Assembly (NCBI GenBank): GCA_038063735.1
Contig: JBBTUN010000004.1
Span: 106,646-170,645 of the forward strand
Direction of reading: 5' to 3'
Length of the DNA stretch: 64,000 bases
From: Patescibacteria group bacterium
GTDB lineage: Bacteria; Patescibacteriota; Microgenomatia; Curtissbacterales; GWA2-41-24
The notes under the pieces are model-generated. The model made no database searches. It was not told the origin of the DNA and was given only the letters and a program-made list of their open reading frames with translations. Positions 1 to 64,000 of the stretch are shown piece after piece. Every line of letters begins with the position of its first letter. Position 1 is the first letter of the stretch. The translations under genes were made by a program, and so were the position numbers.

Positions 1-683
1 TGGGGGAGTTATATTATTTTGAGCTAATTCTCCTACTCGCAGGTACGTATTCCATAGTTAAAAATAAAGAAAAGTATGCGTTTTTAATTTTCGGGTGGTT
101 ACTTATCTCTCCTCTTGGGCCTGCTACAGCCCGAGAAACACCTCATGCGCTTCGAATGGCCCATATTCTGCCAACTTTTCAGGTAATTTCAGCGTACGGC
201 CTTTACTATTTATTGAATAGATTTAAATTCAGGAAACTTATGATTATTTCAACACCGCTGGTGATCGGTCTTTCTGTTTTTGCCTACTTGCACTTTTACC
301 ACGTCCATTACCCTAAAGAATATTCGGGTGAGTGGCAATATGGGTACAAGGAGGCAATTAACGAGGTAGCAGCTCAGCAGAGCAAGGTAGGCAAAGTCGT
401 AATTTCAAACTATATTGGCAGGGCTTACATAAATTTACTTTTTTATACAAAAGTCGACCCGGCAGATTATATAGCCAAAGCAAACGTTACACGAGACGAG
501 CAATTTTTCTATAATGTCAATAGTTTCGACAAATACATTTTTACGGACCATATTGAAGCATTTAACAGTGCAAATACCCTTTATGTATCCTCACCTGGAC
601 ATTTACCATCTTCGGCGCTTAAGCTTAAAACAGTCTATAACTTAAATAATTACCCTGTCTTTGAGGTAGGAATTATCCCATGA
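1..683 (+). CDS. GT-C glycosyltransferase (PMT/ArnT-like), 5'-truncated by the window start. Only the C-terminal TM region and periplasmic domain are present.
   Basis: The reading frame is open from position 3 to the stop at 681-683. The upstream part (…FGWLLISPLGPATARETPHALR) aligns with the last-TM region of paralogs 2191-3873 and 5665-7251. The C-terminal WQYGYK…YTKVDP block is shared with those paralogs. Confidence 0.6.
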   Translation, partial: GELYYFELILLLAGTYSIVKNKEKYAFLIFGWLLISPLGPATARETPHALRMAHILPTFQVISAYGLYYLLNRFKFRKLMIISTPLVIGLSVFAYLHFYHVHYPKEYSGEWQYGYKEAINEVAAQQSKVGKVVISNYIGRAYINLLFYTKVDPADYIAKANVTRDEQFFYNVNSFDKYIFTDHIEAFNSANTLYVSSPGHLPSSALKLKTVYNLNNYPVFEVGIIP

Positions 684-2194
684 TAAAGTTTATACAGATA
701 ATTAAGTCTAATAAATACGAATTAATAACCTGGGCGGTTCTCCTGCCAGCATTTCTATTAACTCGTCTTGTAAATCTTAAAGTAATTCCAATTTTTACGG
801 ATGAGGCAATTTATAGCTACTGGGCTCAAGTTGCTCTTCATGATCCTGCAAACCGATATATTTCCCTGGAAGACGGTAAGCAACCATTGTTTATCTGGAT
901 TGCAGCGGTTTTTCAATTCTTTATTAAAGATCCATTAGTTGCGACAAGACTCGTCTCGGTGCTTTCGGGCTTTTTAGCGCTTATTGGTATTTACCTCCTC
1001 GCTAGAGAGATTTTTAATAAAACTAGTGCCAAAATTGCTGCCCTAATCTACATACTAATTCCGCTGACTCTTCTTTATGACAGAATGGGACTTTTCGATT
1101 CTTTACTGGCAATGCTTGGTATTTGGGCGGTTTTTTTCTCCATAAAGGTGGCAAAAAATGGCCACCTGGATAATGCCCTTCTCAATGGTTTTGCAATTGG
1201 CCTCGCCACAATAACAAAGTCTTCCGGAAACTTTTTCTTGTATCTATTACCATTCTCACTCGTATTCTTCCCCTTTAAAAGTAAAGGTTTTTTGGAAAAA
1301 ATATTCAAATGGATATTTTTTACATTTGTTACGATAGCATTATCGCAAATAATTTATAACTCACTAAGGCTTTCCCCGCTCTTTTACTTAATAGCCAGGA
1401 AAAATCAAGAGTTTATAAGACCACTATCCGAGGTAATCAACGAACCATTTAAATTCTTTGTCTCCAACACTCATGCAATAACTGAATGGCTAGTGTCATA
1501 TGTAGGCATACCCTTATTTCTCATTTTTTTGACGGGTCTAGCAATAGGGGTTGTTACAAAAGATAAGAGAATTTTTTATCTTGGTGTACTCATCTTTGCA
1601 CCCTTTTTTGCAGAAGCTCTTTTCAACAAGGTTTTATATCCCAGATTCGTATTGTTTTACTTTCCGTACATCATCCTTGTAATCGCCTGCGCCTTCGATT
1701 ATTTATTTACAAGATTTTTATCCCAAAAAAATATAATTGCAGTTGTATTAATATTTGCGCTACTTCAACCTGCGATCAAATCGTTTAAGTTGCTAACAGA
1801 CCCTCCCAGTGCCGGACTAGTCGACGCCGATGCAAGCCAATATCTTAATAGCTGGCCAGCGGGATATGGAGTAGATGAAGTGCTTCAATTCATTCGAAGC
1901 AAGTCACAAGACAAAGCAATATTTATAGGAACCGAAGGAACATTCGGTCTTTTCCCGTTCTCATTAAATATTTACAACTTTAATAATCCCAAGGTGCAAA
2001 TACGCGCTTATTGGCCGGTAAACCCAAGCGATTTGCCAAAAGAAGTTACGGAAATATCGAAAAAAATGCCTACCTATTTTGTCTTTAATGAAAACCAACA
2101 CGAAATAAATAATAGCAGCCTCAAGTTGATTCAGAAAATTAAAAAGGGCAGCGGAGAAAGTTATATGAGGCTTTACCAAGTGATCCCTCGATGA
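680..2194 (+). CDS. GT-C family glycosyltransferase (PMT/ArnT-like, GT39/GT83-like), 504 aa polytopic membrane protein
   Basis: N-terminal TM helix followed by an FTDEAIYSYWA loop-1 'DE' motif. At least 10 predicted TM segments. ATGA overlap with the upstream gene. Confidence 0.6.
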   Translation: MIKFIQIIKSNKYELITWAVLLPAFLLTRLVNLKVIPIFTDEAIYSYWAQVALHDPANRYISLEDGKQPLFIWIAAVFQFFIKDPLVATRLVSVLSGFLALIGIYLLAREIFNKTSAKIAALIYILIPLTLLYDRMGLFDSLLAMLGIWAVFFSIKVAKNGHLDNALLNGFAIGLATITKSSGNFFLYLLPFSLVFFPFKSKGFLEKIFKWIFFTFVTIALSQIIYNSLRLSPLFYLIARKNQEFIRPLSEVINEPFKFFVSNTHAITEWLVSYVGIPLFLIFLTGLAIGVVTKDKRIFYLGVLIFAPFFAEALFNKVLYPRFVLFYFPYIILVIACAFDYLFTRFLSQKNIIAVVLIFALLQPAIKSFKLLTDPPSAGLVDADASQYLNSWPAGYGVDEVLQFIRSKSQDKAIFIGTEGTFGLFPFSLNIYNFNNPKVQIRAYWPVNPSDLPKEVTEISKKMPTYFVFNENQHEINNSSLKLIQKIKKGSGESYMRLYQVIPR

Positions 2195-3873
2195 AAAATT
2201 TTTTCACCAAAAACTGGCTTCTTATTTTTACCATTATTTTGGCAGCAATACTCAGATTAACCTATTTGCAGCAAATTCCTGTAGGGTTTAATGACGACGA
2301 AGCTGCTTTCGGCTACAACGCCTATTCAATTTCAAAAACAGCCAGGGACGAATGGGGCACACTCATGCCTTTCCCCGCATTCGAGAGCTTTGGTGACTGG
2401 AAACTGGTAGGTTATCTTTACCTTGTAGTTCCATTTATATACGCTTTTGGACTCACAGAGTTTGCAACACGCTTCCCTTCTGCCATTATTGGAATTTTGG
2501 CCGTTTTTACAACTTACCTTTTAGCAAAGGAAATTTTTAACAAAAAAACTGCAATAATTGCCTCCTTGTTGTTGGCTATCTCGCCTTGGCATATTGCAGC
2601 ATCCAGAAATGCTTTTGAATCAGATATCTTAATTTTTTTTAACACTCTTTTTATTTTCTTTTTCTACAAATCACTTAACAATTTCAAATACTTCAAATTT
2701 TTTATACTGACTGCAACGATAACTTTTTATATATATAGATCGGCTTGGGTTTTTACACCGCTGCTTGTTTTTTGCTTATTTCTAATCTTTGAGAACAATT
2801 TTAAAAAATACAGAAAAGAGGTACTTAAGTATTTTATTATTTCTTTTGTTTTACTTATCCCAATAATTTTAAGTGCGTTTTCTTTTAGAGGGCAATCCAG
2901 GTTCATTCAAGAAAGCTTTATTTATGGTGTTCAAAATTCCGGTATATCTCAATCTCTAAACGAGCGACTTGGTTTTTGCTCACAACGATACTCGCGCGTA
3001 ATTTGTCGTGTAGTCTACAACAAGCCGACGTTTTTTATAAGTCAGTTCACACAAAATTATATAGAAAACTTATCTCCAAACTTGTACTTCATAAATGGAA
3101 CAAGCGGTTATCAGGGTTTTGCTCCTCGTGGTTTTCTCTATTTTTTTGAATTGCCTCTAGCCTTAGCCGGTTTAATTTATCTTTTAAAAAAATGGTCAAA
3201 TACTACAAAAGTTATTCTTGCTTGGCTGCTTATAGTACCCCTAGCGCCTTCACTAACAAGTGTTGGTAACCCAGGCAGGCTTAATATTTTACTTCCGCTC
3301 CCACAAATTCTCGCTAGCGTGGGTGTGATATTTTTATATTCAAGCGTTAGGCAAAAAGCGTTAAGGCAAGCATTTTTGCTAGTGGTCACGGCAATTATTT
3401 TAATTTCCTTTGTGAGGTTTATTATGGACATAAGTACTATATATCCTATATTCACAGCAAGGTCACAACGTTATGGATACAAGGATGTTTTTAACTACGC
3501 ATATTCTCAAAAAAATAATTATGAGCAAATTGCGATATCCCGAAAAACTGATGACGCCAAGCAATATATTCATTTTCTAATGTACACAAAATACGATCCA
3601 AGTACTTATCACCAAAAGCAAATTCACACAAAAGACAATCAGGGCTGGCAAAATGTCCAAGCAATTGGAAAATTTCATTTTTATGGAAGTACACCGGCAA
3701 TTGAAGAGTTACCGTTAAATAGTTTACTTATAGTGGGTGAAAAAGAGGTAGATTACCCACAAGCCGCACTAAAGTATTATATAAACGATCTAAGAGGAGA
3801 CAGGCTTTTTGAGGTTTATGATATGAATGTAGTCAACAAGATAATTACCGATCAAAATAGAAATATCAATTAA
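2191..3873 (+). CDS. GT-C family glycosyltransferase (PMT/ArnT-like), paralog
   Basis: FNDDEAAFGYNAYSISKTARDEWGTLMPFP loop-1 motif, typical of PMT/GT39. Polytopic, with a C-terminal soluble domain carrying a YGYK…YTKYDP block. ATGA overlap. Confidence 0.7.
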   Translation: MKNFFTKNWLLIFTIILAAILRLTYLQQIPVGFNDDEAAFGYNAYSISKTARDEWGTLMPFPAFESFGDWKLVGYLYLVVPFIYAFGLTEFATRFPSAIIGILAVFTTYLLAKEIFNKKTAIIASLLLAISPWHIAASRNAFESDILIFFNTLFIFFFYKSLNNFKYFKFFILTATITFYIYRSAWVFTPLLVFCLFLIFENNFKKYRKEVLKYFIISFVLLIPIILSAFSFRGQSRFIQESFIYGVQNSGISQSLNERLGFCSQRYSRVICRVVYNKPTFFISQFTQNYIENLSPNLYFINGTSGYQGFAPRGFLYFFELPLALAGLIYLLKKWSNTTKVILAWLLIVPLAPSLTSVGNPGRLNILLPLPQILASVGVIFLYSSVRQKALRQAFLLVVTAIILISFVRFIMDISTIYPIFTARSQRYGYKDVFNYAYSQKNNYEQIAISRKTDDAKQYIHFLMYTKYDPSTYHQKQIHTKDNQGWQNVQAIGKFHFYGSTPAIEELPLNSLLIVGEKEVDYPQAALKYYINDLRGDRLFEVYDMNVVNKIITDQNRNIN

Positions 3874-3876: not shown

Positions 3877-5655
3877 ATGGATTTTTACCATTCATTTCAA
3901 TCATCAGTTCGAGAAAAATTAAACATTTGGATAATTCTAATCCTATTATTAGGATCGTTATTGCGCCTTATCGACCTTGGTGGGATTCCTTCAGGTTTTC
4001 AGTACGACGAAATTCAAAGCGCTTACAACGGATTTTTAATTTCAAAACACTTAAAAAACATTCAAGGCGAATTTTTACCCACAGACATAGACTATTTTAG
4101 AGACTTTAGGCCGGCTTTTAATGCTTATCTCTCAAGTGTAACTGTCAAACTACTAGGCAACCATGAAACTTCAGGACGCCTGCCATCCGCTCTTTTAGGA
4201 ATAATCACAATATTGCTTGTATATTTACTAACTTTAAAGTTTTTTCAAAAAAAACAAATCGCAATCCTTGCAGCTCTGCTTATAGCAATTTCACCGTACC
4301 ATGTTATTTTTTCTCGCAGCTCATCCGATAGCATTATCGACGTAACACTTTCAATCTTCGCAATTTTAATTTCACTAAAATATTTAGGCAAGGGAGACAA
4401 AAAGTTGTTGCCATTGATATTAGTAACTTGGATCTTTAGTTTCTATACATATCAAACAGGCAGAATAATGATACCAATTTTATCTTCTGTAATAATTATT
4501 ATAGATTGGTTGAAAACGAAATCATTTAGCAAATCAAAATGGCTAATATTCACTTTAATAATATTTTTAATTTTCCCCCTAGGATACTCGATAGCAACAA
4601 AAAAAGGCTCAAGTAGATTTAATCAAGTAAGCGTTTTTGCAAACCCAGAAATTCAACGGTCACTAAATCAAATAATCACTGAATCCGGCGTCGTAGGTAT
4701 AAACCCTACAATAGTTCGAGTTTTCAATAACAAATTAATTTCTTACTCGATGCAGGCTTCACAGAATTATTTGTATTTTTTCTCTCCCGAAAATATGTTG
4801 TTTGACAAAAATGTGAAACCGCTAAGATACAAAATACCGCAAGTAGGGCTGATAACAATTACGGAATACCTCGGTCTCTTGGCGGCTTGTTACTTCTTCA
4901 TTAAAGGAAAAAACAAAATTAAGTCATCTTTTCCTTTCATAGCTATATTAATTGCTCCACTACCAGCTGCAATAACGTCCGAAGATTTTCAAAGATCCAT
5001 ATATCTAATACCCTACTGGCAAATTCTAGCTAGTTTTGGCTTATATAACATGATCAAATCTATCACCTCCAAAAAATTGTTATTATTTGGTGTGTCAATT
5101 GTTATTGTAGTAGTAACATACCAGGCATTATTCTTTGCCTATCAATATTTTCTGATTTCACCCGTCCATGAACCTTTTTATAGAACATACGAAAGGAAAG
5201 AATTAGCCATTTTCCTGGGCTCTAACGAAAATATGAACAAAAATGTCTTACTGTCAGAGTACGACGGAACATATATTTACTATCTATACTTTAATAAGTT
5301 GGATATATTTTCTCTGAAATATAAAAAACCAACCAAATACTTCGAGGGTGATTTTACTATGGTAAATATGACATTTAAAAAGAACAGATGCCTGGGAGGA
5401 AATGATTATTTGGAAAATCGATACGATATGTCTATTGAATATGAAGATTGCAAAAAATTTCCTTTTTTAGCGCCAGTCAAGGAATTTAGAAGAAAAGATG
5501 GCTCTTTAGTATTAGTTGCATACAATATAAACGGTTATATCTACGACTTACAAAGGCAGTATCAAGAAACCTGCGAGAAGGATTGGGGACCATCAGACGG
5601 TGATTTACTACAAAGTGCTAATTCCATTAGAACCACTATTAATAATTGTAATTAG
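3877..5655 (+). CDS. GT-C family glycosyltransferase (PMT/ArnT-like), paralog
   Basis: QYDEIQSAYNGFLISK loop-1 motif. Polytopic N-terminal half and a large soluble C-terminal domain. Confidence 0.65.
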   Translation: MDFYHSFQSSVREKLNIWIILILLLGSLLRLIDLGGIPSGFQYDEIQSAYNGFLISKHLKNIQGEFLPTDIDYFRDFRPAFNAYLSSVTVKLLGNHETSGRLPSALLGIITILLVYLLTLKFFQKKQIAILAALLIAISPYHVIFSRSSSDSIIDVTLSIFAILISLKYLGKGDKKLLPLILVTWIFSFYTYQTGRIMIPILSSVIIIIDWLKTKSFSKSKWLIFTLIIFLIFPLGYSIATKKGSSRFNQVSVFANPEIQRSLNQIITESGVVGINPTIVRVFNNKLISYSMQASQNYLYFFSPENMLFDKNVKPLRYKIPQVGLITITEYLGLLAACYFFIKGKNKIKSSFPFIAILIAPLPAAITSEDFQRSIYLIPYWQILASFGLYNMIKSITSKKLLLFGVSIVIVVVTYQALFFAYQYFLISPVHEPFYRTYERKELAIFLGSNENMNKNVLLSEYDGTYIYYLYFNKLDIFSLKYKKPTKYFEGDFTMVNMTFKKNRCLGGNDYLENRYDMSIEYEDCKKFPFLAPVKEFRRKDGSLVLVAYNINGYIYDLQRQYQETCEKDWGPSDGDLLQSANSIRTTINNCN

Positions 5656-5664: not shown

Positions 5665-7251
5665 ATGAAAAATAAAATTTTAATATTAATAATCGTCCTT
5701 TCCTTTATCTTCAGATTTTACAGATTGGGCGAGATACCTTTAAGCCTTAATTGGGATGAAGTAAGTAATTCTTACAACGCATATTCGATATTAAAAACAG
5801 GTCGGGACGAATACGGCAATTTTTTACCCTTAACTAATCGTTCCTTTGACGATTATAAACCGCCCCTTTACATGTACTTGGACATAGTGCCTGTGGCTCT
5901 GGTGGGACTTAACGAAATTGCTGCAAGGCTTCCTTCCGCACTCTTTGGGGTAATGAGCGTATATGCCATTTATTTATTAACAAAAAGGTTGTCAAAAAAC
6001 GAAAAGACATCTCGCCTAAGCGCACTTCTTTTTTCTATCTCACCTTGGAATTTACTTTTTTCCAGAGTGGGGTTTGAAGCAAATATTGGGCTTTTCTTCT
6101 CAATCATAACTCTTATGCTATTTCACTATGCCCTTCGTTATTCAGAAAACAATCCAACCCCAAAAAACAAACTATTTTTAGTGTTAAGCGCTATCTTTGC
6201 AGCACTTTCTTTATACAGTTACCACTCCGTGAGGATTTTCTTGCCGCTAATTCTTTTTGTCTCGGCAGTGATCTACAGAGAGAATCTCTTAAAATTCGAT
6301 AAAAAGATTCTTTCGGTATCAATTTTGCTAGGTATCGCATTAACACTACCACTCGTACTTCTAAACCCCAAAGAAGCTATCACTGGCAGGTACGCAACAA
6401 CAACCCTAAAAGCAAGGTCCCAGGATTTGGAAAAATCAGTAAGTCTTATAAATGAGGATAGTAACGCCCGTCAATTCTTTGGCAACATAATTCATAACCG
6501 CAGATTAGTTATTCTGGAGTCAACACTTCAAAAATACATCTCTCATTTTGATATTAACTATTTATTTACTTCAGGAGACGACAACCCCAGACATCATCTT
6601 AAAACGAATGGCCTTCTATTCTTGGTTATGTTACCTCCAGTATTGTACGGAGTTTTTTCTTCCTTAAAAAAGAACAGCAAAGAAACACTCTTTTTATTTT
6701 CGTGGCTTATTGTCGCGCCTATTCCTGCCGCATTTGGAGACGCCTTCCCTCACGCCATAAGGAGCTACTTAATGGTTGTTCCCTTAACAATCTTTGGGGC
6801 TATCGGTTTAAAAAAAATAGTTACTTTTGAAAAATTCGCAAAATTTACCCTCGCCCTGTCTTCATTGATTCTTTTAGCAACCGTTGTTGCTTTTCTTCAT
6901 AATTATTTTGCTCACTACAATAAAGAAGAATACTCGTCTTGGCAATATGGCTATAAGGGGGCCGTTTTTGAATCAGCGAAACTTAAGGATCAGTTTGAAA
7001 AAGTTATAATTGATCCCGGCATAGAACAGGGGTACGCTTTTTGGCTTTTCTATTTAAAATACGATCCTAAGGCCTACCAGGAAAGTGGCAACGCCAAAAA
7101 CTTTGATAAATTTTATTTCGAAGATAACTTGCCCAAAGATGATAACAGTCTTTTTGTTTCACCATCAGAAAAATTTCCTGAAAGTTTTATTTTAGTTAAA
7201 ACAATTTACAATTCTGAAAACAATATATTGTTGAAATTGGGACACCCCTAA
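5665..7251 (+). CDS. GT-C family glycosyltransferase (PMT/ArnT-like), paralog
   Basis: NWDEVSNSYNAYSILKTGRDEYGNFLPL loop-1 motif. The C-terminal WQYGYK…YLKYDP block is shared with 1-683 and 2191-3873. Confidence 0.7.
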   Translation: MKNKILILIIVLSFIFRFYRLGEIPLSLNWDEVSNSYNAYSILKTGRDEYGNFLPLTNRSFDDYKPPLYMYLDIVPVALVGLNEIAARLPSALFGVMSVYAIYLLTKRLSKNEKTSRLSALLFSISPWNLLFSRVGFEANIGLFFSIITLMLFHYALRYSENNPTPKNKLFLVLSAIFAALSLYSYHSVRIFLPLILFVSAVIYRENLLKFDKKILSVSILLGIALTLPLVLLNPKEAITGRYATTTLKARSQDLEKSVSLINEDSNARQFFGNIIHNRRLVILESTLQKYISHFDINYLFTSGDDNPRHHLKTNGLLFLVMLPPVLYGVFSSLKKNSKETLFLFSWLIVAPIPAAFGDAFPHAIRSYLMVVPLTIFGAIGLKKIVTFEKFAKFTLALSSLILLATVVAFLHNYFAHYNKEEYSSWQYGYKGAVFESAKLKDQFEKVIIDPGIEQGYAFWLFYLKYDPKAYQESGNAKNFDKFYFEDNLPKDDNSLFVSPSEKFPESFILVKTIYNSENNILLKLGHP

Positions 7252-8832: not shown

Positions 8833-9594
8833 GTGAAAAATATTTCTGTAGCGCTAGCCTGTTACAACGAAGAGACCAATATTGTGGACTGCATTGAGGC
8901 TGCAAAACTCTTGGCAGATGAAATTATAGTAGTCGATGGTCACTCCCGGGATAGAACAGCTGAATTAGCACGCCAGCAAGGCGCAATTGTGGTTGAAGTT
9001 CCCAATAAAAAAATGTTTCACATTAATAAAAATATCGCCATTAAAAATTGCACAAATGAGTGGGTATTCGTATTGGATGCAGACGAGAGAATAACTGAAG
9101 ATCTTGCAATAGAAATAAAAAAAACACTAAGAAAAGTATCCAATGAAAAAGGCTTTTGGATAAATAGAAAAAACTGGTTTTTAGGGGGGTACTTAACAAA
9201 AGGTGGTGCCTACCCCGATGCTGTTATCAGATTATTTAAAAATGGATATGGAATTCATCCTGAAAAAGATGTGCACGAGCAAATTGCAATAAAAGGACCC
9301 CTTGGTCATATAACAAGCCCACTATTGCACTTAGCAGACCCCAATTTCGCAAGATACCTGGAAAGAGCGAATAGATACACCGACGAGACAAAGAGGCATT
9401 TCAAAGAGCAAAAACTAGCTAAAAATTTTCCGAACACAATTTATTATGTAATTATAAAACCAGCAATTACGTTCTTTAAGATTTATGTAAGACACAAAGG
9501 TTATGTGGATGGTTTTAGAGGCTTTGTCTGGGCGCTTTTTTCCTCAGCGCATTATTTTTATGCTTATTCTAAATACCTCACAGACAAAAAATAA
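8833..9594 (+). CDS. GT2 family glycosyltransferase (GT-A fold)
   Basis: VALACYNEE…IIVVDGHSRDRT…VLDADE motifs. GTG start. Divergent from 7274-8812. Confidence 0.7.
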   Translation: MKNISVALACYNEETNIVDCIEAAKLLADEIIVVDGHSRDRTAELARQQGAIVVEVPNKKMFHINKNIAIKNCTNEWVFVLDADERITEDLAIEIKKTLRKVSNEKGFWINRKNWFLGGYLTKGGAYPDAVIRLFKNGYGIHPEKDVHEQIAIKGPLGHITSPLLHLADPNFARYLERANRYTDETKRHFKEQKLAKNFPNTIYYVIIKPAITFFKIYVRHKGYVDGFRGFVWALFSSAHYFYAYSKYLTDKK

Positions 9595-9656
9595 TTTTAA
9601 CGCTTGCAATAATTCGTAAAACTTGATAACAATCTTATACAGTAACTTTTTTAAAA

Positions 9657-9666
9657 AAGGAGGTGA
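9657..9666 (+). promoter_or_regulatory. Strong Shine-Dalgarno AAGGAGGTGA, 9 nt upstream of the ATG at 9676
   Basis: Direct sequence match to the anti-SD. Confidence 0.55.
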
Positions 9667-9675
9667 TTAAAAAAC

Positions 9676-9813
9676 ATGCCCGCAAAGAAAAAATCAAAAC
9701 CTAAGAAAAAAGCTGCAAAAAAGACAACTAAGAAAAAAACCGTAAAAAAAGCTTCAAAGAAGAAAGCGGTAAAAAGGTCAACTAAAAGAAAAGCTACAAA
9801 GAAAAAGAGATAA
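9676..9813 (+). CDS. Small lysine-rich basic protein, 45 aa, histone H1-like or nucleoid-associated-like. Not in the ORF track.
   Basis: Translation is MPAKKKSKPKKKAAKKTTKKKTVKKASKKKAVKRSTKRKATKKKR. It is about 60% K/R. A strong RBS lies upstream and a hairpin plus T-run lies downstream. It sits in the only sizable intergenic gap (9595-9922) in the first 20 kb. Confidence 0.5.
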   Translation: MPAKKKSKPKKKAAKKTTKKKTVKKASKKKAVKRSTKRKATKKKR

Positions 9814-9837
9814 GTTGTTTCTATTCAGTTCGAACTG

Positions 9838-9889
9838 CCCACCTCCAAGTTTTAAAGTGAATCTTTAAAAACATGTAGGTGGGTTTTAT
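9838..9889 (+). terminator. Putative intrinsic terminator with a long loop
   Basis: CCCACCT (9838-9844) pairs with AGGTGGG (9877-9883). It is followed by TTTTATT. Confidence 0.3.
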
Positions 9890-12456: not shown

Positions 12457-12462
12457 TCATAA

Positions 12463-56091: not shown

Positions 56092-57768
56092 TCAGTCTAT
56101 TACCCCCAGTACATCAATATAGGGACCTGGTCTTATGAGTCTAAAATATGGGAATATTGCTGTTGTGTCAAAAAGAGCCTCGGGGATATCGGTATCGTAG
56201 ATCTTGCTCCCAGTAGGACTAAAATGTGCAACCAGCCTGTAACGTTTCGGATCAAGCTCTAATAATCTGTCCGAAGATGAATTGTAATTGTCAATAACAA
56301 TTCTTGAGTTGCTTATTAACAAAGCTTTATTTGTATAATTTACCTTGCTATCGCCTGCTGTAGAAATTGCGTTAGCATACATTATATCTCTAACGTTGTC
56401 GGCATATGTATTCCCACTAAGTTTTGCAGCTCTTCCATAATATCCCGGGTTCATCTCCTGCACTTTTTTTATAACAAGCGCATTCGGAACATACCCATAA
56501 TACCTGTGAGACGTAGCTACGAGCGGGGTGCTCTTTTCTATATTCTGGTCCAACCATTGTCTTATAAGATCATAGGTCGATGTTTGAACAAGAACCAAGT
56601 TAAAATAAACAGAATTAAAAAAAGTTAAAATCATAACAATCACAAAAAACAAGTGTCTATATCTGACTCGTAGTACAAATTCATAAAAAACATATCCGGC
56701 CAACACTGGTAAAAAACAAAAAGAAATCAATAAATAGCGACTAAGGGGGGGAAAAAAAAGAACCCATATTAAAATATTTATAACAAAAAAAAGTATAAAA
56801 GCCCGATGTATCCCGTGCTTTTTGTATTTTGTAAGTGCAAAAATCACAAAAAAAAGAATGATAATTGGATCTGTAAAAAAAACATTAAGAATCGACTTGC
56901 CAGCGTTTAAAAAAGAATTTAGGTCCGTTATATTTAACTTAACCAATTCAACGCTGTCCGACCGGTTTGTCGGATCCAAAATTCGAAATACTTTTGACCC
57001 TAAACTAACTAAATTTAGAACGAATACAATCATGGTATAAAAAGTTAGCCCGGCAAGTAATCCTCTAATATATTTTTTAATTTTAAGTTCAGAAAAAAAA
57101 ATGATTAGGCAAATAAGTAATGCGCTCATCGCCCCAAACTGATGGAAACCAAAGGAAACAGCGCTAAAAAAAAATGAAACTAACACATACTTTGGGAACT
57201 TGTTTTTGGTTTTTACGGCTTTTACTGCCCAGTAAACAGCAACTATTGAGAAGAAAACTGCTTCTGACCAAGGTCTTGCTTGATGTGAAATTAAGACAAG
57301 ATTATATGAGGCAGCTGTAAGTAGAGAGCTAAATAATGCGACTTCCTTTTTATAAAACAGTAGTCTAGCAAGTTTATAACTAACCAATATTGCCAAAACA
57401 CCAAATAATGCCGAAATAACCCTAGGTATAAATAGAAAATATCCTTCGTGAGTTACTATCAGAAATTCTAAATCAGAAATAGAATGAATCTTGCCAGTGA
57501 TAAATAAAACAAATGATGCAAGAGCTATGAATGGAATTTGAAGATAGGCACCTAAAGGACCGTAGTTTCCTAAGGTAAATAGTGTTTTGCTAGCAAGCAT
57601 ATTAAGAGCGCTAAGGTGGTAAACAGCTTCATCACCCGAAGCATATAATATTGGAAAACCAATAGTTAAATTAATTGTTCTTAACAATAAACCAATTGCA
57701 ATGATAAAAAGAAGCAAATATTTATCTGGAATATTGGTAACAATACTCTTCAAACTTTGAAACAACAT
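56092..57768 (-). CDS. GT-C family glycosyltransferase (ArnT/PMT-like). Contains a G7A8 homopolymeric tract.
   Basis: ILYASGDEAVYHLSALNML loop-1 DE motif. About 12 TM segments and a roughly 170-aa C-terminal soluble domain. Confidence 0.6.
   Translation of the reverse strand: MLFQSLKSIVTNIPDKYLLLFIIAIGLLLRTINLTIGFPILYASGDEAVYHLSALNMLASKTLFTLGNYGPLGAYLQIPFIALASFVLFITGKIHSISDLEFLIVTHEGYFLFIPRVISALFGVLAILVSYKLARLLFYKKEVALFSSLLTAASYNLVLISHQARPWSEAVFFSIVAVYWAVKAVKTKNKFPKYVLVSFFFSAVSFGFHQFGAMSALLICLIIFFSELKIKKYIRGLLAGLTFYTMIVFVLNLVSLGSKVFRILDPTNRSDSVELVKLNITDLNSFLNAGKSILNVFFTDPIIILFFVIFALTKYKKHGIHRAFILFFVINILIWVLFFPPLSRYLLISFCFLPVLAGYVFYEFVLRVRYRHLFFVIVMILTFFNSVYFNLVLVQTSTYDLIRQWLDQNIEKSTPLVATSHRYYGYVPNALVIKKVQEMNPGYYGRAAKLSGNTYADNVRDIMYANAISTAGDSKVNYTNKALLISNSRIVIDNYNSSSDRLLELDPKRYRLVAHFSPTGSKIYDTDIPEALFDTTAIFPYFRLIRPGPYIDVLGVID
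56745..56759. repeat. Homopolymeric tract GGGGGGGAAAAAAAA (G7 then A8) inside the CDS 56092-57768. It encodes FFPP on the minus strand.
   Basis: Seen directly. It is the longest G/C run in the 64-kb window, and the genome is about 30% GC. Confidence 0.8.
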
Positions 57769-59023
57769 ATTTTAATTCAACTTTTCCGATTCCAGGATAA
57801 ACGCCCATCCAAAAACCATTGCTCATAATCTTATCACTAAATTTTAGATTTCCAACCACCCTATGTTTTATTTTGCAATATGCTGGATGACGCAATAAAT
57901 TTCCTGCAAAAAGACTTCTAGTTTCTATTTTGTTACTTTGCAAATAATTAACTATCGCTAGCCTATTAAATGGTGCGTTGTCTCGAATCGCCAACATAAA
58001 TCCAAACCAACATGGATCAGATTTAATATCCCACTTCGGCAGAACAAAAAAGTTATCAAATTTCTTAAGTTCCTCGTATAGAAACTGGTGGTTTTCTTGT
58101 CTTGCTTTGATAAAACCGGGGAGCTTATCAAGCTGTGCGACTCCTATTGCAGCCTGAATGTCTGTAGCCTTTAAATTAAATCCAATATGTGAATATGTAT
58201 ACTTATGGTCATATCCATAAGGTAACTTGCCAAGTTTGAAAGAAAACCGTCTACCACACCTGTTATCCTGACCTGTCCTGCACCAGCAGTCTCGTCCCCA
58301 CTCGCAAAAGGAATTTACAAGAACATGTAAATCGGGGTTACTGGTAACAACAGCTCCGCCTTCCCCCATTGTTATTTGATGGGCAGGGTAAAAGGAAAAA
58401 GTGCCTATGTCCCCAAACGTAGATACATAACGGCCGGCAAACTTTGAACCCAATGCGTCACAGCAATCTTCAATAAGCCAGAGTCCGTGCTTCTTGGCAA
58501 TTTTAGCTACTTTCTCAGCGTCAAATGGATTCCCGAGGGTATGGGCAAGTATTATAGCCTTCGTTTTGTTTGTGATCGCTTTTTCGATCATTTCAACTTC
58601 AGCGTTTCTTGTTTCAAGGTTAACGTCAACAAAAACAGGTACAGCGCCAAATTGAATGATTGGGTTTACTGTTGTAGGGAAAGAGCAAGCTGCCGTGATA
58701 ACCTCGTCCCCGGGTAAAATTCTCCTTTTGCCAAGTTTTGGAGAAGTCAACGCATAAAAAGCGGCTAAGTTGGCGCTTGAACCGGAATTTGTTATAGTCA
58801 CTAACTTTACGCCCAAAAAATTTCCTAATTTTTTGCAAAACTCTTCAGCATAATGACCTTCAGTTAACCAAAATTCCAATGATGCCTCGACAGCCTTTTC
58901 AATTTCATTATGATCAAAGACACGTCCTGCAACTTTTACAGGAGTGACCCTAGGAATAAATATCTGTTTTTTATGATTTTCGGTATAATACCTACGAATA
59001 AATGCCTGAAGCTGTTTGTCCAT
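57722..59023 (-). CDS. CDP-4-keto-6-deoxyhexose 3-dehydrase (E1; RfbH/DdhC/AscC family of the DegT superfamily)
   Basis: The N-terminus resembles RfbH (…ASLEFWLTEGHYAEEF…NSGSSANL). The exact E1 [2Fe-2S] spacing C-X57-C-X1-C-X7-C is present: DCC…(57)…CWCRTGQDNRC. Confidence 0.7.
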   Translation of the reverse strand: MDKQLQAFIRRYYTENHKKQIFIPRVTPVKVAGRVFDHNEIEKAVEASLEFWLTEGHYAEEFCKKLGNFLGVKLVTITNSGSSANLAAFYALTSPKLGKRRILPGDEVITAACSFPTTVNPIIQFGAVPVFVDVNLETRNAEVEMIEKAITNKTKAIILAHTLGNPFDAEKVAKIAKKHGLWLIEDCCDALGSKFAGRYVSTFGDIGTFSFYPAHQITMGEGGAVVTSNPDLHVLVNSFCEWGRDCWCRTGQDNRCGRRFSFKLGKLPYGYDHKYTYSHIGFNLKATDIQAAIGVAQLDKLPGFIKARQENHQFLYEELKKFDNFFVLPKWDIKSDPCWFGFMLAIRDNAPFNRLAIVNYLQSNKIETRSLFAGNLLRHPAYCKIKHRVVGNLKFSDKIMSNGFWMGVYPGIGKVELKYVVSKFEEYCYQYSR

Positions 59024-59064: not shown

Positions 59065-59997
59065 ATGAAAAAAATAAGTATTGTTACCCCCCTCTTTAAC
59101 GAAGAAGAAAATGTCAAAGAGCTTTATAAACAAATAAGCGATTTGATGGCAAAAGAAAAAAACTATCAATTCGAAATTATAGCGGTTGAACACGGTTCAA
59201 GCGATTCTACGTTCAAAATCTTAAAATCCATACGCAAAAAAGATCCAAGGCTGAAAATTATTCAACTTTCTAGAAATTTCGGTAATGTTGATGCAGCAAT
59301 TAGCGCCGGACTCAATTTTTCAAGCGGGGATGCAGCTGTGATTTTAATGGGAGACCTACAAGAACCACCCGCACTCATTTCGAGTTTCTTAAGAAAGTGG
59401 GAAGAAGGTTACGAGATTGTATACGGAACGATTAAAAAAAGAGCAGATAATTCACTTATTCGTAAATTTAACTCCCTACTGTTCTATAAAATATTAAGGT
59501 TTGCAACCGGAAAAATGTTTCCTGAAAATGCGTCAGATTATAGGCTTGTCGATAAAAAAGTATACGAGGTGATAAATAGCATGGGGGAAAGAAACAAATT
59601 CCTTAAAGGACTAACATTCTGGACTGGCTTTACTCAAATTGGTATCCCATACAATAGATCGCCGAGATTTGCTGGCGAGTCTAAAGCAGATTTCATTACT
59701 GTGCTTAAGGTAGCCGTAAATGGGATATTATCATTTTCCTACATACCGCTAAGGCTAGTGACAATATTGGGGTTTGTACTTGCAATAGCTTCTTTCTTCA
59801 TACTGTCTTTAGAAATCATTTTATTTTTAGCCTTGGGTAGAGAAGCAAAAGGAGTTCTAACAATTGTAGTTTTAATTAGCTTTTTGTTTGGCATGTTATT
59901 TGTGATCCTTGGTGTTATTGGAGAATATATTGCCAGAATTTACGACGAAGTTAAGCAAAGACCAATTTATATAGTCAAGAAAAAAATTGGTATCTAA
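59065..59997 (+). CDS. GT2 polyprenyl-phosphate sugar synthase with C-terminal TM helices (ArnC/GtrB-like)
   Basis: SIVTPLFNEEENV…IIAVEHGSSDST…DLQEPP motifs. Two hydrophobic helices at the C-terminus. Confidence 0.7.
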   Translation: MKKISIVTPLFNEEENVKELYKQISDLMAKEKNYQFEIIAVEHGSSDSTFKILKSIRKKDPRLKIIQLSRNFGNVDAAISAGLNFSSGDAAVILMGDLQEPPALISSFLRKWEEGYEIVYGTIKKRADNSLIRKFNSLLFYKILRFATGKMFPENASDYRLVDKKVYEVINSMGERNKFLKGLTFWTGFTQIGIPYNRSPRFAGESKADFITVLKVAVNGILSFSYIPLRLVTILGFVLAIASFFILSLEIILFLALGREAKGVLTIVVLISFLFGMLFVILGVIGEYIARIYDEVKQRPIYIVKKKIGI

Positions 59998-60635
59998 GAA
60001 GACAAGTGCCCAATGTTCACCATTCTGACATAGGATCTATCGGCAACACCATTAGCACTTTTAGGAAGCTTCACCCACTTAACATCTCCGTTTACAACTG
60101 TCTCCATAAGAGGTATTTTCCTCACAGTTTTAAATCCGCAACGTTTATAAAGATTCACTGCTCTTACATTATCATTAAATGTTATTAAATAGAGCCTGTC
60201 TATATTTAAATTTTTAAAACCCCAACTGACTAAGGTGGTAACACATGTAGTCATCAGCCCAGGAATATTTTTTAAACCTCTCACGACATTATCTAACTCG
60301 CATGAGTTATCCCTTCGTCTGTACCTATAAAAACCTAGATGCCCATAAAACCTACCGTACTCATCCTCAATTGCGAACAAAATCCTGTCCTGATTATCAA
60401 TGACTAAATCCTTTAACCATTTTTTTGTCCTTTTGACAGTAACTTTAAACGTGTCACCAAACCAGAAAGCCTCCCTCCTTCTCCACAAAGCTATATTCTT
60501 TATAAGAATTTTATTTTCAACATCTGCATTGTTTATTACGCGAAGAAAAATTATTATTGAGTGAATTTTGCCAACTTTAATAACAAATTTAGGCCTCTTC
60601 TTCAGAGCGTTTATTTTACTTGAATAATGAGACAT
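59994..60635 (-). CDS. GNAT-family N-acetyltransferase-like protein
   Basis: 213 aa. The C-terminal NVRAVNLYKRCGFK is a GNAT motif A/B-like region. Confidence 0.5.
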   Translation of the reverse strand: MSHYSSKINALKKRPKFVIKVGKIHSIIIFLRVINNADVENKILIKNIALWRRREAFWFGDTFKVTVKRTKKWLKDLVIDNQDRILFAIEDEYGRFYGHLGFYRYRRRDNSCELDNVVRGLKNIPGLMTTCVTTLVSWGFKNLNIDRLYLITFNDNVRAVNLYKRCGFKTVRKIPLMETVVNGDVKWVKLPKSANGVADRSYVRMVNIGHLSS

Positions 60636-60646
60636 TAATTTAGAGC

Positions 60647-61756
60647 TTATTTAGTTAGCTTGCGGACTAAACAGTCTGAAATATAATTTACTTGTTCTTC
60701 CGTAAGATTCACACCACTTGGAAGATTAATACCATTTAGGCCAAGATGATGGGCGACAGGTGTGTTAATTTCCTTATACATAGGAAACATGCTAACCGGA
60801 TAGAAAAATGGCCTTGTGTCAACGAGCTGTTTAGCCATTGCCCTCATTAATTGATCGCGGGTATATTCAAATTTTTTGTCTAAAACAATAGATGACATCC
60901 ATTTATTTGACCTAGTATTTGTTTTGTCAGGATTCATGGATATTCCTCCTAATTTGCCAAGTTTGCGAGCATACCATTTAAATATTTTATTCTTTCTTCT
61001 GACAAACTCCTCAATACGCTCAATTTGAGCCAGTGCGAGGGCTGCTTGGATATTGGACATGTGATAGCTATATCCCACCCGTATTTGCCAAAATTTTCGC
61101 TTCGGATCTTTTCCATGCTCGTTTAGCATTCTTGCTTTGTCCAAATTCTTTTTGCTATTTGTAACGAGCATCCCACCAATTCCAGAAATAGCTATTTTTG
61201 CCCCCTGAAAGCTATATGCTCCAAAATCTCCGAATGTGCCAGGCTTTTTCCCCTTATATATAGAGCCTAATGCTGGAGCAGCATCCTCAACTACATAAAG
61301 TCCATGCTTTTTCGCTATGTTCATAATCTCATCCATCTCACAAAGATTTCCGTACATGTAAACAGGCATAATAGCTTTAGTACGGCTACTGATAGCCTTT
61401 TTAATTTTATCTGGGTCAATGCACCATGTGTCTGGCAAAACATCTATAAAAATTGGTTTTGCTCCAAGACGCATAACTACATCGGAAGCTGCGTAAAAAG
61501 CTAAATCAGGCAAAATAACTTCATCCCCCGGCTTGATATCCAAGCAGGCAAGTGCAAGTTGCATAGCGCCGGTCGCCCCAGACACAGCCATTACGTATTT
61601 GGAACCAATATAATTTGCAAATTTTCTTTCAAGTTTTTCTTTGTAATCAAACATATGATAATTCCACCCGTTAGTGACTGCATCATTTACATAATTAATT
61701 TCTTTTTGAGTAATAGAAGGGCCAGCCGTTAATATCATCCCGTGTGGTCTATACAT
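60647..61756 (-). CDS. DegT/DnrJ/EryC1/StrS family PLP-dependent sugar aminotransferase
   Basis: 369 aa with family-typical organisation: GDEVILPD…AIMPVYMYG…GGMLVTN. Confidence 0.8.
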   Translation of the reverse strand: MYRPHGMILTAGPSITQKEINYVNDAVTNGWNYHMFDYKEKLERKFANYIGSKYVMAVSGATGAMQLALACLDIKPGDEVILPDLAFYAASDVVMRLGAKPIFIDVLPDTWCIDPDKIKKAISSRTKAIMPVYMYGNLCEMDEIMNIAKKHGLYVVEDAAPALGSIYKGKKPGTFGDFGAYSFQGAKIAISGIGGMLVTNSKKNLDKARMLNEHGKDPKRKFWQIRVGYSYHMSNIQAALALAQIERIEEFVRRKNKIFKWYARKLGKLGGISMNPDKTNTRSNKWMSSIVLDKKFEYTRDQLMRAMAKQLVDTRPFFYPVSMFPMYKEINTPVAHHLGLNGINLPSGVNLTEEQVNYISDCLVRKLTK

Positions 61757-61778
61757 GATAAGTAATAAATGTTACAAG

Positions 61779-63581
61779 CTATAAGTTATTTTCAGCAGTT
61801 GATTTTACAATCATATTGGATTCTAGCTCCTTGGGCAATAGCAAAGGAAAAAGATCCTCATATGGTCTGGATACCATAGAACCGTCCGCCCGTTTCACCG
61901 AATGAATTCTAGGCACAACCAATTGCCAATGCCCTGACCTAACGTCACACAATACTGGGCCAGGATAAGAGAGTACTTGTTTTATCTTTTTGTCGATTTC
62001 TCGAGTGTTGTTAATTCTTATTCCACGAATTCCATAAGAGCTAGCTATTTTCAAAATATCTGGAAACCACAATCCCGTTTTTGGGCTCTCACCCATGAGT
62101 CGACCGGCCATATGTGTTTTTTGAGTATGTCTAATTAGCAAATAGCCATTATTGTTAATGACAAAAATTTTAATAGGCAAATTGTTTTGCTTTACTGTAG
62201 CCAGTTCTTGAATATTCATTTGTAAACAGCCATCCCCCGTTACAACAATCGTTCTTTTACCTCCAGAAGCTATACATGCTCCTACGCTACTTGGCCAGTA
62301 TCCCATTGTTGAAATTCCTCCTGTCGTGATAAACCTTTGACCCTTTTTTAAATTCCACGTTTGGCAAACAACATGAAATGGGGAGCTGGTATCAACAACT
62401 ATGGTGTCACGATCGGATGCAAATTTAGATAACCGTTCTGTAAAGTAATACGAATTTACTAGAGCCTCTCTTTTGTAATGGGGCAAAACCATAGGATATT
62501 TTTTTCTCCAGGAAGCACATACACGAGTCCAATTATCAAAGCCTGGAAGCCTCTTTCTATTGATAGATTTTAGTAGTTTTTCAAGAAATACTTTTACGTC
62601 TTTATTTATTTTAAAGTCGATATTGATACCTGGTTTATTTAATTCGAAAACATCTATGTCGACTACAATTTTTTTTGCATGTCTACCCCAATCCTTAGCA
62701 TCATAACCAATAATACCTGTATCAAGCCTTGTTCCCAGGCAGATAATTAAATCGGCATTTTGAATAGCAAAATTTGCAGCTCGCTCTGGGTATAGTCCCG
62801 GCCTGCCAACAAAAAGTGGGTTAGTGCTTTCAATAAGGTCAATGCCAAGTCTTGTTGTTTCAACTGGAATTTTTAAAGTTGAGACTACTTCTTTAAAAAG
62901 TTTCTCGGCCATTCCTGTTCTAATGCCCTGACCAGCCAAGATAAGTGGTCGGCGTGATTTATAGATTATTTCCAAAACTCTGTTTATCTCCTCACTGGAA
63001 ATTTCAGCTATTTTAGGAAATTTTGGTTCAACAAATTTTTGTAAAAGCTTTTCGGGAACTTCCATCCTTTGAATGTCCAGTGGTACCTCTATCCATACAG
63101 GACCGCGCCTTCCAGACATCGCCCAAAAATAAGCCTCCTCCATGTAATGCTTAACACTTGCAGGGTCATCTATTGTTTTAAAGTACTTGGTTACAGATTT
63201 GGCAATTGGTGCGATGTTAATCCCTTGAAGGCCGAACTGCCTAATTTTTGTTTCCTGCATATAAGAAACCGTAGAGTGTGATGATTGCCCGGAAATGACC
63301 AGCATAGGGGCAGAATCTACATACGCGCCAACAACCCCATTTAAGACATTTATTGCTCCCGGGCCTGCCGTTACCATAGCCACACCCATTTTCCCACTAA
63401 TTCTGCCATATGCTTCAGCCGCCATTCCGGTCGCTTGTTCATGATGATTGAATACAGGTTTAATTTTTTTATTTCGAAAGACCGCATCATTTAAAAACAT
63501 TGCCTGTCCGCCAGTAACCATAAACACAGTGTCAACTCCTCTGCTTTCCAAGAATTTCACAATGTAGTCAGATACAGTCAT
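61779..63581 (-). CDS. Thiamine-diphosphate-dependent enzyme of the acetolactate synthase/YerE family
   Basis: 600 aa. N-terminal TPP_enzyme_N (GVDTVFMVTGGQAM…HHEQATGMAAEAYGR), a central domain and a C-terminal TPP-binding domain (GDGCLQMNIQELAT). Confidence 0.75.
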   Translation of the reverse strand: MTVSDYIVKFLESRGVDTVFMVTGGQAMFLNDAVFRNKKIKPVFNHHEQATGMAAEAYGRISGKMGVAMVTAGPGAINVLNGVVGAYVDSAPMLVISGQSSHSTVSYMQETKIRQFGLQGINIAPIAKSVTKYFKTIDDPASVKHYMEEAYFWAMSGRRGPVWIEVPLDIQRMEVPEKLLQKFVEPKFPKIAEISSEEINRVLEIIYKSRRPLILAGQGIRTGMAEKLFKEVVSTLKIPVETTRLGIDLIESTNPLFVGRPGLYPERAANFAIQNADLIICLGTRLDTGIIGYDAKDWGRHAKKIVVDIDVFELNKPGINIDFKINKDVKVFLEKLLKSINRKRLPGFDNWTRVCASWRKKYPMVLPHYKREALVNSYYFTERLSKFASDRDTIVVDTSSPFHVVCQTWNLKKGQRFITTGGISTMGYWPSSVGACIASGGKRTIVVTGDGCLQMNIQELATVKQNNLPIKIFVINNNGYLLIRHTQKTHMAGRLMGESPKTGLWFPDILKIASSYGIRGIRINNTREIDKKIKQVLSYPGPVLCDVRSGHWQLVVPRIHSVKRADGSMVSRPYEDLFPLLLPKELESNMIVKSTAENNL

Positions 63582-63586
63582 CTAAT

Positions 63587-64000
63587 TTATATTAATGCTT
63601 CAATTGGGTTTTCTCTCTCTATGGCGCTTTTTTTCTGTTTTAGGTTTGCCGCAATATCCACAATTATATCTTCTTGGCCAGCCACTATCTTCCTTCGCCC
63701 CAGTTCAACAAGTATGTCTCGGGCATCCACACCAAATCTTTTCGCAGCCATTCTAGCATGTGGAGCAAATCCACTAAAAACTCCGGCAAGTCCACTCGTA
63801 AGGCTGATGGCACTTATTTCCTGCGGTTTTTTCATAATCTTTGCGGTTATCTTTTCGCTATTGTCCATAAGTTTAAAAAGATCAAGATCTAATTTGTAGC
63901 CCTTCCTCATTAGAACGGCAACGATTACTTCAAGCTGACAATTACCTGCGCCTGCCCCCAACCCCCTAGATGTAGTGTCGATTATCTTAGCACCAGCCTC
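63587..64000 (-). CDS. 4-hydroxy-2-oxovalerate aldolase (DmpG/MhpE/BphI family), C-terminal part. The gene continues beyond the window end.
   Basis: The frame is open to position 64000. It has GLGAGAGNCQLE and DARDILVELGRRKIVAGQEDIIVDIA, matching the DmpG catalytic-domain end and the DmpG_comm domain. Confidence 0.65.
   Translation of the reverse strand, partial: EAGAKIIDTTSRGLGAGAGNCQLEVIVAVLMRKGYKLDLDLFKLMDNSEKITAKIMKKPQEISAISLTSGLAGVFSGFAPHARMAAKRFGVDARDILVELGRRKIVAGQEDIIVDIAANLKQKKSAIERENPIEALI

Follow-up and report, generated by a model that had tools for sequence, protein, structure and literature searches.

A GT-C-rich glycosyltransferase locus of a Curtissbacteria-type bacterium and its probable role in envelope-glycan assembly

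A 64-kb stretch of contig JBBTUN010000004.1 (the window; all positions are counted from its first letter) carries an array of genes for polytopic glycosyltransferases of the GT-C fold, set among genes for sugar-nucleotide synthesis and glycan assembly. The window holds 59 genes, is ~99% coding with ~35% GC and is arranged in a few long co-directional runs. Every gene was scanned against Pfam: about one-quarter encode polytopic membrane proteins that are of PMT_2 type or lack a family, and others encode non-GT-C glycosyltransferases, nucleotide-sugar enzymes and methyltransferases. Rfam and tRNA scans of the window gave no match. The host is a Microgenomates member of the candidate phyla radiation (CPR) and, judged from the GTDB relatives of the core GT-C family, lies closest to Curtissbacteria. 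Contigs with proteins identical to those of the window were obtained from groundwater of the Hainich (0.1 µm fraction of well H41). An archaeal origin, suggested at first by genes of the left flank (DUF359/PPAT and PolB-exo) and by the 0.1 µm sample, was rejected, since the relatives are MAGs of Curtissbacteria, Gottesmanbacteria and Levybacteria and NCBI assigns the identical 26190 protein to a Patescibacteria group bacterium. Flanking contigs, which are 100% identical to the window across overlaps of 12.2 kb and 6.6 kb, allowed the locus to be followed beyond both ends.

The locus encodes 16 GT-C proteins, with 14 in the window and two complete genes just to its left. An original prediction, made from the letters of the window alone, had proposed 13 GT-C proteins; all 13 hold up, one of them marginally (10951-12060), and a fourteenth (28621-30144) had been missed. 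The GT-C genes of the window, with a methyltransferase gene lying between two of them, are as follows (TM, transmembrane segment; SAM, S-adenosylmethionine; + and -, strand).

1-683 (+): C-terminal end of a PMT/PMT_2 GT-C (531 aa in full) from the core paralog family; gene start 912 bp beyond the left window end
680-2194 (+): GT-C; PMT_2 56 bits; the best-conserved GT-C across Curtissbacteria (52-58% identity)
2191-3873 (+): GT-C, core paralog family; PMT_2 43 bits, with STT3 and PMT matches; DE motif after TM1
3877-5655 (+): GT-C, core paralog family; PMT_2 55 bits
5665-7251 (+): GT-C, core paralog family; PMT_2 43 bits, PMT 27 bits
7274-8812 (-): divergent GT-C, 9 TM; 20 bits alone; the profile of its family, built from relatives, reaches 98.4% hhalign probability to the core family
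10951-12060 (+): probable GT-C, PIG-V/GT87-like, 9 TM; PIG-V 22.9 bits against a threshold of 22.4; hhalign 80% to the 51957 family
26190-27893 (+): GT-C of a family without Pfam match, found in Curtissbacteria-like genomes only; Asp45 invariant, in the first outer loop
27890-28624 (+): SAM methyltransferase, conserved between two orphan GT-Cs
28621-30144 (+): DUF6798 protein with a predicted GT-C fold; Asp26 invariant after TM1
35973-37298 (+): GT-C, GT87/DUF2029-like; 441 aa from the database start; some homologues match GT87 or PIG-U
37279-38787 (-): GT-C; PMT_2 49 bits
51957-53333 (-): GT-C, GT87/ALG6-like, with a DYPP motif; 21 of 61 distant homologues match GT87 and 13 of 61 match ALG6/8
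54411-56090 (+): GT-C, core paralog family; PMT_2 24 bits, sub-threshold; BLASTP E 2e-72 to the core family
56092-57768 (-): GT-C; PMT_2 29.6 bits; hhalign 97.6% to the core family

Profile hidden Markov model searches, suggested with the original prediction as a check, bore out these assignments. The PMT_2 gathering score was passed by six proteins (i.e. 680-2194, 2191-3873, 3877-5655, 5665-7251, 37279-38787 and 56092-57768) and that of PIG-V by one, the others being tied in through profile comparison or the Pfam matches of their homologues; two paralogs also passed the Pfam cut-off for PMT (GT39). Members of the core paralog family share 25-39% identity with each other (BLASTP E down to 1e-116) and a motif after TM1 (i.e. 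DE...YNAYS), in which D31 and E32 are invariant in the seven core paralogs. An acidic residue is likewise conserved in the loop after TM1 in the 26190 family (D45) and the DUF6798 family (D26), and a DYPP-type motif shows almost no variation in the 51957 family; topology would place these first-loop acidic residues on the outer face. A hydropathy scan detected 6-10 TM in all 13 complete candidates, with only six at this threshold for 37279-38787. Similarity in fold to solved GT-C enzymes was also found. Among solved proteins, ArnT is closest to the core family in sequence (E 8e-7), and the 51957 family profile matches solved PIG-M and ALG6. Like other members of the GT-C superfamily, these proteins would use sugar donors linked to a lipid phosphate.

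The assignment of 10951-12060 to GT-C is marginal and the weakest of the set. For the 26190 and 28621 families, PDB profile searches gave nothing useful; the C-terminal domains of both proteins resemble the globular domain of AglB. DUF6798 reached an hhalign probability of 35% against the core family and is assigned a GT-C fold on the basis of structure prediction. The possibility that the membrane proteins at 26190, 28621 and 35973, which lacked a family, are Wzy or Wzx was ruled out, each being GT-C by fold or by homologues.

The second group of genes comprises the candidate synthases of polyprenyl-phosphate-linked sugars (glycosyltransferase family 2, GT2), a candidate flippase and their neighbours (SDR, short-chain dehydrogenase/reductase).

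8833-9594 (+): soluble GT2, GmaR/SunS-like; nearest among solved enzymes to GmaR and SunS, glycosyltransferases acting on proteins or peptides; 55-64% identity in relatives
12088-12456 (+): 4-TM SMR-family protein, candidate polyprenyl-phosphate-sugar flippase; ArnF 50 bits, ArnE 26 bits, both sub-cut-off
12463-13143 (+): candidate polyprenyl-phosphate-sugar synthase GT2, TM-less; PpgS 161 bits, AglJ 102 bits, DPMS (5mlz) E 6e-14
13131-14384 (+): SDR epimerase/reductase, then a 3-TM DUF2304 protein
30180-31882 (+): SDR followed by a TM-less GT2 (31148-31882) whose best solved relative is DPMS (E 3e-12)
51215-51994 (-): candidate polyprenyl-phosphate-sugar synthase GT2, TM-less; DPMS E 6e-22, GtrB 8e-16, ArnC; overlaps the upstream GT-C gene
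59065-59997 (+): GtrB/ArnC/PgfS-type GT2 with two C-terminal TM; PgfS 243 bits, ArnC 172 bits, both full length

Two C-terminal helices, as in the protein at 59065, are typical of GtrB and ArnC. Five or six polyprenyl-phosphate GT2s had been predicted. The enzymes at 12463, 31148, 51215 and 59065 are indeed DPMS/GtrB/ArnC/PpgS-like, and a fifth of this type lies outside the window in the right flank (240 aa, ArnC E 2e-17). The proposed fifth DPM1-like enzyme of the window, 8833-9594, was rejected since it best matches GmaR and SunS instead. Scores for all the polyprenyl-phosphate-type GT2s fall below the equivalog cut-offs.

The layout that had been proposed for such enzymes (i.e. a GT2 synthase, a small flippase and a GT-C acting on an extracytoplasmic acceptor) was seen at 10951-13143 and 51215-53333. 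At the former, the GT-C (10951), the SMR protein (12088) and the GT2 (12463) are contiguous, an arrangement that is kept in relatives. At the latter, the genes for the GT2 (51215) and the GT-C (51957) overlap; the GT2 at 59065 adjoins the GT-Cs at 54411 and 56092. The ArnE/F-like protein at 12088-12456 is the sole flippase candidate; the other modules yielded none. The DUF2304 protein, encoded two genes downstream of the PpgS-like GT2, is a possible membrane partner of this TM-less enzyme; DUF2304 is presumably also the family of Rv3632. In Mycobacterium tuberculosis, PpgS has two partners, namely Rv3632, a small membrane protein, and the GT-C Rv3779 (PMC3485146).

The GmaR/SunS-like GT2 stands directly after the GT-C array and is among the best-conserved genes of the locus, which hints at a protein or peptide target. 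Between this gene and the first family 4 glycosyltransferase (GT4) gene is the largest non-coding gap of the window (9595-9922, 328 bp); a gap at the same position occurs in relatives (e.g. L009 and L011) and may be a promoter or regulatory region.

The remaining genes of the window encode cytoplasmic glycosyltransferases and sugar pathways (TPP, thiamine pyrophosphate).

9923-10954 (+): GT4 (GT-B), cytoplasmic glycosyltransferase
14381-19388 (+): GT4, GT4, EpsE-like GT2, SDR and GT4, a cytoplasmic glycan assembly block
19385-20952: RmlD (+) and RmlC (-), last steps of dTDP-rhamnose synthesis
20937-26193 (+): SDR, SAM methyltransferase and three GT4s
31879-35980: WecB (262 bits, above cut-off), formyltransferase-like protein (-), GFO oxidoreductase and UDP-ManNAc dehydrogenase-type enzyme
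38774-40489 (-): soluble protein of 571 aa, weakly matching the families BFO_1060, TIGR04396 and Capsule_synth
40491-50302 (-): nonulosonic-acid and amino-sugar pathway
50324-51241 (+): RmlD-like reductase
53585-54319 (-): SAM methyltransferase
57722-59023 (-): DegT-type sugar aminotransferase
59994-64000 (-): GNAT, DegT, acetolactate-synthase-like TPP enzyme and C-terminus of a DmpG-type aldolase, sugar tailoring; the locus continues beyond the window end

The window thus encodes seven GT4s and one EpsE-like GT2, all cytoplasmic; the latter (16556-17389), of the chain-extending EpsE type, was absent from the list given with the original prediction. The genes at 31879-35980 would together make up a UDP-ManNAcA-type pathway, and the protein at 38774-40489 is a candidate nonulosonic acid transferase. 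The run at 40491-50302 encodes a CBS-SDR, a hexapeptide acyltransferase, DegT, NeuC (415 bits), a formyltransferase, a PIG-L deacetylase, NeuB, a PseF-like cytidylyltransferase, a C-methyltransferase and an SDR. The CBS-SDR (40491-41918) is an unusual fusion, i.e. an SDR sugar dehydratase/epimerase with an N-terminal extension of ~145 aa that includes a CBS domain. The TPP enzyme, together with the DmpG-type aldolase and an acetaldehyde dehydrogenase (61779-64000, continued in the right flank at L005:8077-9995), is encoded among the sugar-tailoring genes; these enzymes may provide the two-carbon branch of some branched-chain sugar.

On the left, the two further GT-C genes are followed by housekeeping genes, and the border of the locus lies at about -4.5 kb in window-equivalent positions. 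On the right, the locus runs on for at least 9.6 kb, past +73.6 kb, giving a total of at least 78 kb. The right flank, on the contig that is identical to the window over 6.6 kb, encodes the DmpG aldolase, the acetaldehyde dehydrogenase, RmlB-like and RmlA-like proteins, a methyltransferase and a pair of ABC-2 exporter proteins, and beyond these DegT, SDR, the ArnC/GtrB-like GT2, SDR and GNAT. The exporter is of the Wzm/Wzt/TagGH type and lies at window-equivalent 67,998-69,541, 4-5.5 kb past the right end. Its ATPase matched TagH (217 bits) and Wzt (190 bits) and its permease Wzm (55 bits) and KpsM (46 bits), all of these scores being below the equivalog cut-offs.

Three genes of the left flank were of separate interest. 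A 148-aa open reading frame without a family match (L001:7966-8412, +; -1355 to -909) lies within the tandem GT-C array and overlaps each neighbour by 4 bp. A 188-aa protein with 6 TM (L001:2491-3057, -; about -6830 to -6264) has a weak, sub-cut-off match to the VTT/DedA domain (20 bits, E 0.001); two housekeeping genes lie between its gene and the GT-C array. DedA-family proteins are linked to undecaprenyl phosphate recycling, which would fit a locus consuming much lipid carrier. A 464-aa protein with ~9 TM (L001:1093-2487, +; about -8228 to -6834) had no Pfam match even at E 1, is unrelated to the GT-C families and is probably an unknown transporter.

The finding of an exporter and of cytoplasmic assembly enzymes alters the picture drawn in the original prediction, in which the lack of Wzx, Wzy, Wzz, an ABC exporter and an initiating phosphoglycosyltransferase (PGT) was taken to support a non-canonical assembly route. 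Inside the window this lack is real, as Pfam scans gave no match to the Wzx, Wzy, Wzz and PGT families. The ABC exporter, however, sits immediately outside, where the prediction had said that canonical assembly genes would count against it, and the seven GT4s and the EpsE-like GT2, which had been overlooked, can make a lipid-linked glycan by the usual cytoplasmic route. A route without exporter is therefore unsupported. An initiating PGT (PF00953, PF02397) was matched neither in the window nor in 19 kb of flanks, and may be encoded elsewhere in the genome. Glycan loci often lack their initiating PGT: in Gram-positive genomes TagO, RgpG and GacO are encoded apart from the locus that they serve, and hence a missing PGT is no evidence for a non-canonical route.

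The conservation of the locus was examined by scanning an alignment of the core family against GTDB genomes, yielding at least 579 confirmed relatives. The closest belong to Curtissbacteria (46-48% identity), with Gottesmanbacteria, Levybacteria and Woesebacteria next. Of 76 related loci, each of up to 21.6 kb, 74 have at least two core-family members and 56 have at least four, with a maximum of eight; these counts are approximate, as split genes were counted twice and every locus has at least one member by construction. So many GT-C paralogs in one locus had been called very unusual. Tandem GT-C arrays are instead the norm in Microgenomates, and the left part of this one is syntenic in Curtissbacteria: the gene order of window positions 1-19.4 kb is kept in Curtissbacteria genomes at 46-65% identity. 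On the 677-kb contig of one relative, this order extends through the GT4 block, a 26190-like gene, the methyltransferase, the DUF6798 gene and a GT2 to orthologues of 35973 and (weakly) 38774, after which unrelated genes follow. As gene order is kept to this extent, the window from 1 to ~40 kb, minus the rml and ManNAcA inserts, is a lineage-conserved core. The nonulosonic-acid/amino-sugar half, to which three GT-Cs and two GT2s belong, is accessory. Orthologs of different genomes are 45-58% identical and keep their order, whereas paralogs within a genome are 25-39% identical, indicating that the duplications are old and that each copy has been retained, which argues for distinct roles.

Two anomalies of labelling were noted among the relatives. 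One core-family GT-C (35% identity; locus L078, JAWAAV010000043.1) lies on a contig binned as Candidatus Pacearchaeota, a DPANN archaeon, and reflects either mis-binning or transfer between CPR and DPANN. Many Curtissbacteria-syntenic GT-C arrays of Microgenomates type (L010, L015, L017, L019 and others) are found in records of 'uncultured Gammaproteobacteria bacterium' with titles carrying 'isolate binchicken...' or 'SRP..._co...'; the label looks like a placeholder or an error.

The best reading of these data is that the window contains most of the main locus for cell-envelope glycan synthesis in a CPR bacterium of Curtissbacteria type. We consider it reasonably probable that this is a composite locus, in which a glycan is assembled in two stages with extensive elaboration outside the membrane. 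In the cytoplasm, sugars made by the locus (i.e. dTDP-rhamnose, a UDP-ManNAcA-type sugar, CMP-nonulosonic acid and amino, formyl, methyl and possibly branched sugars) would be assembled by the seven GT4s and the EpsE-like GT2 into a polyprenyl-linked glycan, to be exported by the ABC-2 transporter. In the second stage, the approximately five DPMS/GtrB/ArnC/PpgS-like GT2s would place single sugars on polyprenyl phosphate, the ArnE/F-like SMR protein and possibly further proteins would flip these donors, and the 16 GT-Cs would move the sugars to the exported glycan or another envelope acceptor. A wall-linked polysaccharide is the favoured acceptor, with proteins or lipids also possible. The proposed scheme as a whole recalls mycobacterial arabinogalactan/lipoarabinomannan synthesis joined to a streptococcal rhamnan-type locus.

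GT-Cs outnumber donor synthases by about three to one, and seven or eight paralogs stand in tandem with no GT2 between them. From this ratio and arrangement it appears that several GT-Cs probably share one donor and differ in linkage or acceptor position. Several GT-Cs of mycobacteria (Emb, Aft and Mpt) share decaprenylphosphoryl-arabinose (DPA) or polyprenyl-phosphate-mannose (PPM) donors, and the resemblance to mycobacteria in both respects is the reason why assembly in two stages is favoured.

Several observations weigh against this interpretation. Three of the GT2s (12463, 31148 and 51215) are devoid of TM, so that their lipid-phosphate acceptor is deduced from homology only. The flippase candidate falls below the NCBIfam cut-offs (99 bits for ArnF and 92 bits for ArnE), and one GT-C (10951-12060) is marginal. 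The relative locus L084 has no ABC transporter within 10 kb of its core, and thus the positional link between GT4 block and exporter is not conserved. The region from -9.3 to +73.6 kb gave no sign of an initiating PGT, an LCP-type ligase or Wzx. We also know of no biochemistry and no glycan structure for any Microgenomates.

Among the alternatives, protein O-glycosylation survives best. The PMT_2-type array would then consist mainly of protein O-glycosyltransferases, each paralog serving other surface proteins (e.g. S-layer, pili or adhesins), with the GT4 and ABC genes making a separate polymer; actinobacterial Pmt and the streptococcal Pgf and GtrB/PgtC systems would be the nearest analogues. 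The two paralogs that pass the PMT cut-off, the closeness of 59065 to PgfS of the Streptococcus mutans protein-glycosylation system, the resemblance of the conserved GT2 after the array to GmaR and SunS, and the AglB-like C-terminal domains of 26190 and 28621 are all in keeping with it. The NCBIfam Pmt equivalog, however, scored only 15 bits against a cut-off of 800, and Pfam scans of the window genes contained no MIR domain. Moreover, ArnT, to which the core family is closest by sequence among solved proteins, is a lipid glycosyltransferase, no candidate gene for a Ser/Thr-rich acceptor is present in the locus, and the operon-like linkage to the GT4 and rml genes is tight and conserved. We regard this explanation as unlikely.

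Modification of membrane lipids or lipoglycans as the main task of the GT-Cs (cf. ArnT, YfhO and PimE) is less probable still. The lipids could be scavenged from a host, CPR bacteria being generally unable to make their own. The closeness to ArnT and the ArnE/F-like flippase candidate would suit such a role, as would the membership of 35973, 51957 and 10951 (GT87/PIG-type) in classes that act on lipid-anchored glycans; yet the ArnT (GT83) equivalog scored only 20-22 bits against a cut-off of 567, the locus has no genes for lipid-anchor synthesis, and its large nucleotide-sugar repertoire points to a complex polymer. Least probable is the route of the original prediction, by which GT-Cs would build the whole glycan sugar by sugar outside the membrane with neither cytoplasmic assembly nor exporter: the 16 GT-Cs and five donor synthases, the failure to find Wzx, Wzy or a PGT in 83 kb and the lack of an ABC transporter near the core of L084 agree with it, but the seven GT4s and the EpsE-like GT2 are interspersed in the locus and conserved, an ABC-2 exporter of the glycan type is encoded immediately alongside, and the products of the CMP-nonulosonic acid and dTDP-rhamnose pathways go to Leloir enzymes and not to GT-Cs.

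Returning to elaboration of an exported envelope glycan, a conserved locus with 16 GT-Cs that takes up a sizeable share of a tiny genome points to a complex surface glycan of importance to the lineage. Little is known of the cell surface of CPR/Patescibacteria, though the cells live attached to others. A broader claim, which we offer tentatively and consider doubtful, is that Microgenomates, with genomes of ~1 Mb, build much of their envelope glycopolymer outside the membrane by anciently diverged GT-Cs along mycobacterium-like lines. These would include the two newly recognised families (26190 and DUF6798), perhaps acting like oligosaccharyltransferases or ligases in place of Wzy, WaaL or LCP. 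If so, the product could be the surface layer at which episymbionts meet their hosts. The GT2/GT-C pairs, the orphan GT-C families and DUF6798 are concrete targets that can be assayed by heterologous expression, probed with antibodies or lectins and used in comparative genomic work on host specificity.

Four kinds of known system invite comparison. As in the GT39 Pmt and S. mutans Pgf systems (PMC8698208, PMC12041528), a PMT/PMT_2 core, an acidic loop-1 motif and a PgfS-like enzyme (59065) are present, but here MIR domains are missing, the equivalog scores fall far short of the cut-offs and a protein acceptor is only hypothetical. The streptococcal and lactococcal loci for group A carbohydrate, serotype c carbohydrate and rhamnose-rich cell wall polysaccharide (PMC11754754, PMC10821137) similarly combine rmlA-D, GT4/GT2 assembly enzymes, an ABC-2 exporter and side-chain modules of GtrB-type enzyme and GT-C in a single locus of a monoderm-type bacterium. 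The present locus differs in having far more GT-Cs and added nonulosonic-acid and extensive amino-sugar pathways, with no LCP ligase or GacO/TagO-type initiator seen in the region.

The three-component systems GtrA/GtrB/GtrC, ArnC/ArnEF/ArnT, CsbB/GtcA/YfhO, GacI-L and Citrobacter youngae GT136 (PMC11127046, PMC5836110, PMC7389260) also join a GT2 synthase and a small flippase to a GT-C with a C-terminal outer domain, and such parts are adjacent here at 10951-13143 and 51215-53333. Those systems have one GT-C per synthase and one side-chain decoration per module (PMC11127046, PMC5836110), as opposed to ~16 GT-Cs, ~5 synthases and one flippase candidate in the present locus. The mycobacterial arabinogalactan/lipoarabinomannan machinery (i.e. 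EmbA/B/C, AftA-D, PimE and Mpt with DPA and PPM, and PpgS-Rv3632-Rv3779; PMC3485146) is alike in assigning many GT-Cs to few donors and in its tandem genes without interleaved GT2. It differs from the locus described here, which belongs to another phylum and a tiny genome, has PMT_2-type GT-Cs and not Emb/Aft in a denser tandem array, and lacks a DPPR/UbiA-type donor synthase.

In the searchable literature, no paper describing GT-C arrays in CPR/Microgenomates was found, and a recent perspective on CPR/Patescibacteria biology does not contain the words glycosyl, glycan, polysaccharide, S-layer or teichoic. Set against the known systems, all the component families and the kind of mechanism are familiar. 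What is new is the scale and organisation of the locus, given a very small genome and a lineage that is poorly understood, the recognition of DUF6798, on its predicted fold, and of the Pfam-less 26190 family as GT-C enzymes, and the GT-C array as a hallmark of Microgenomates.

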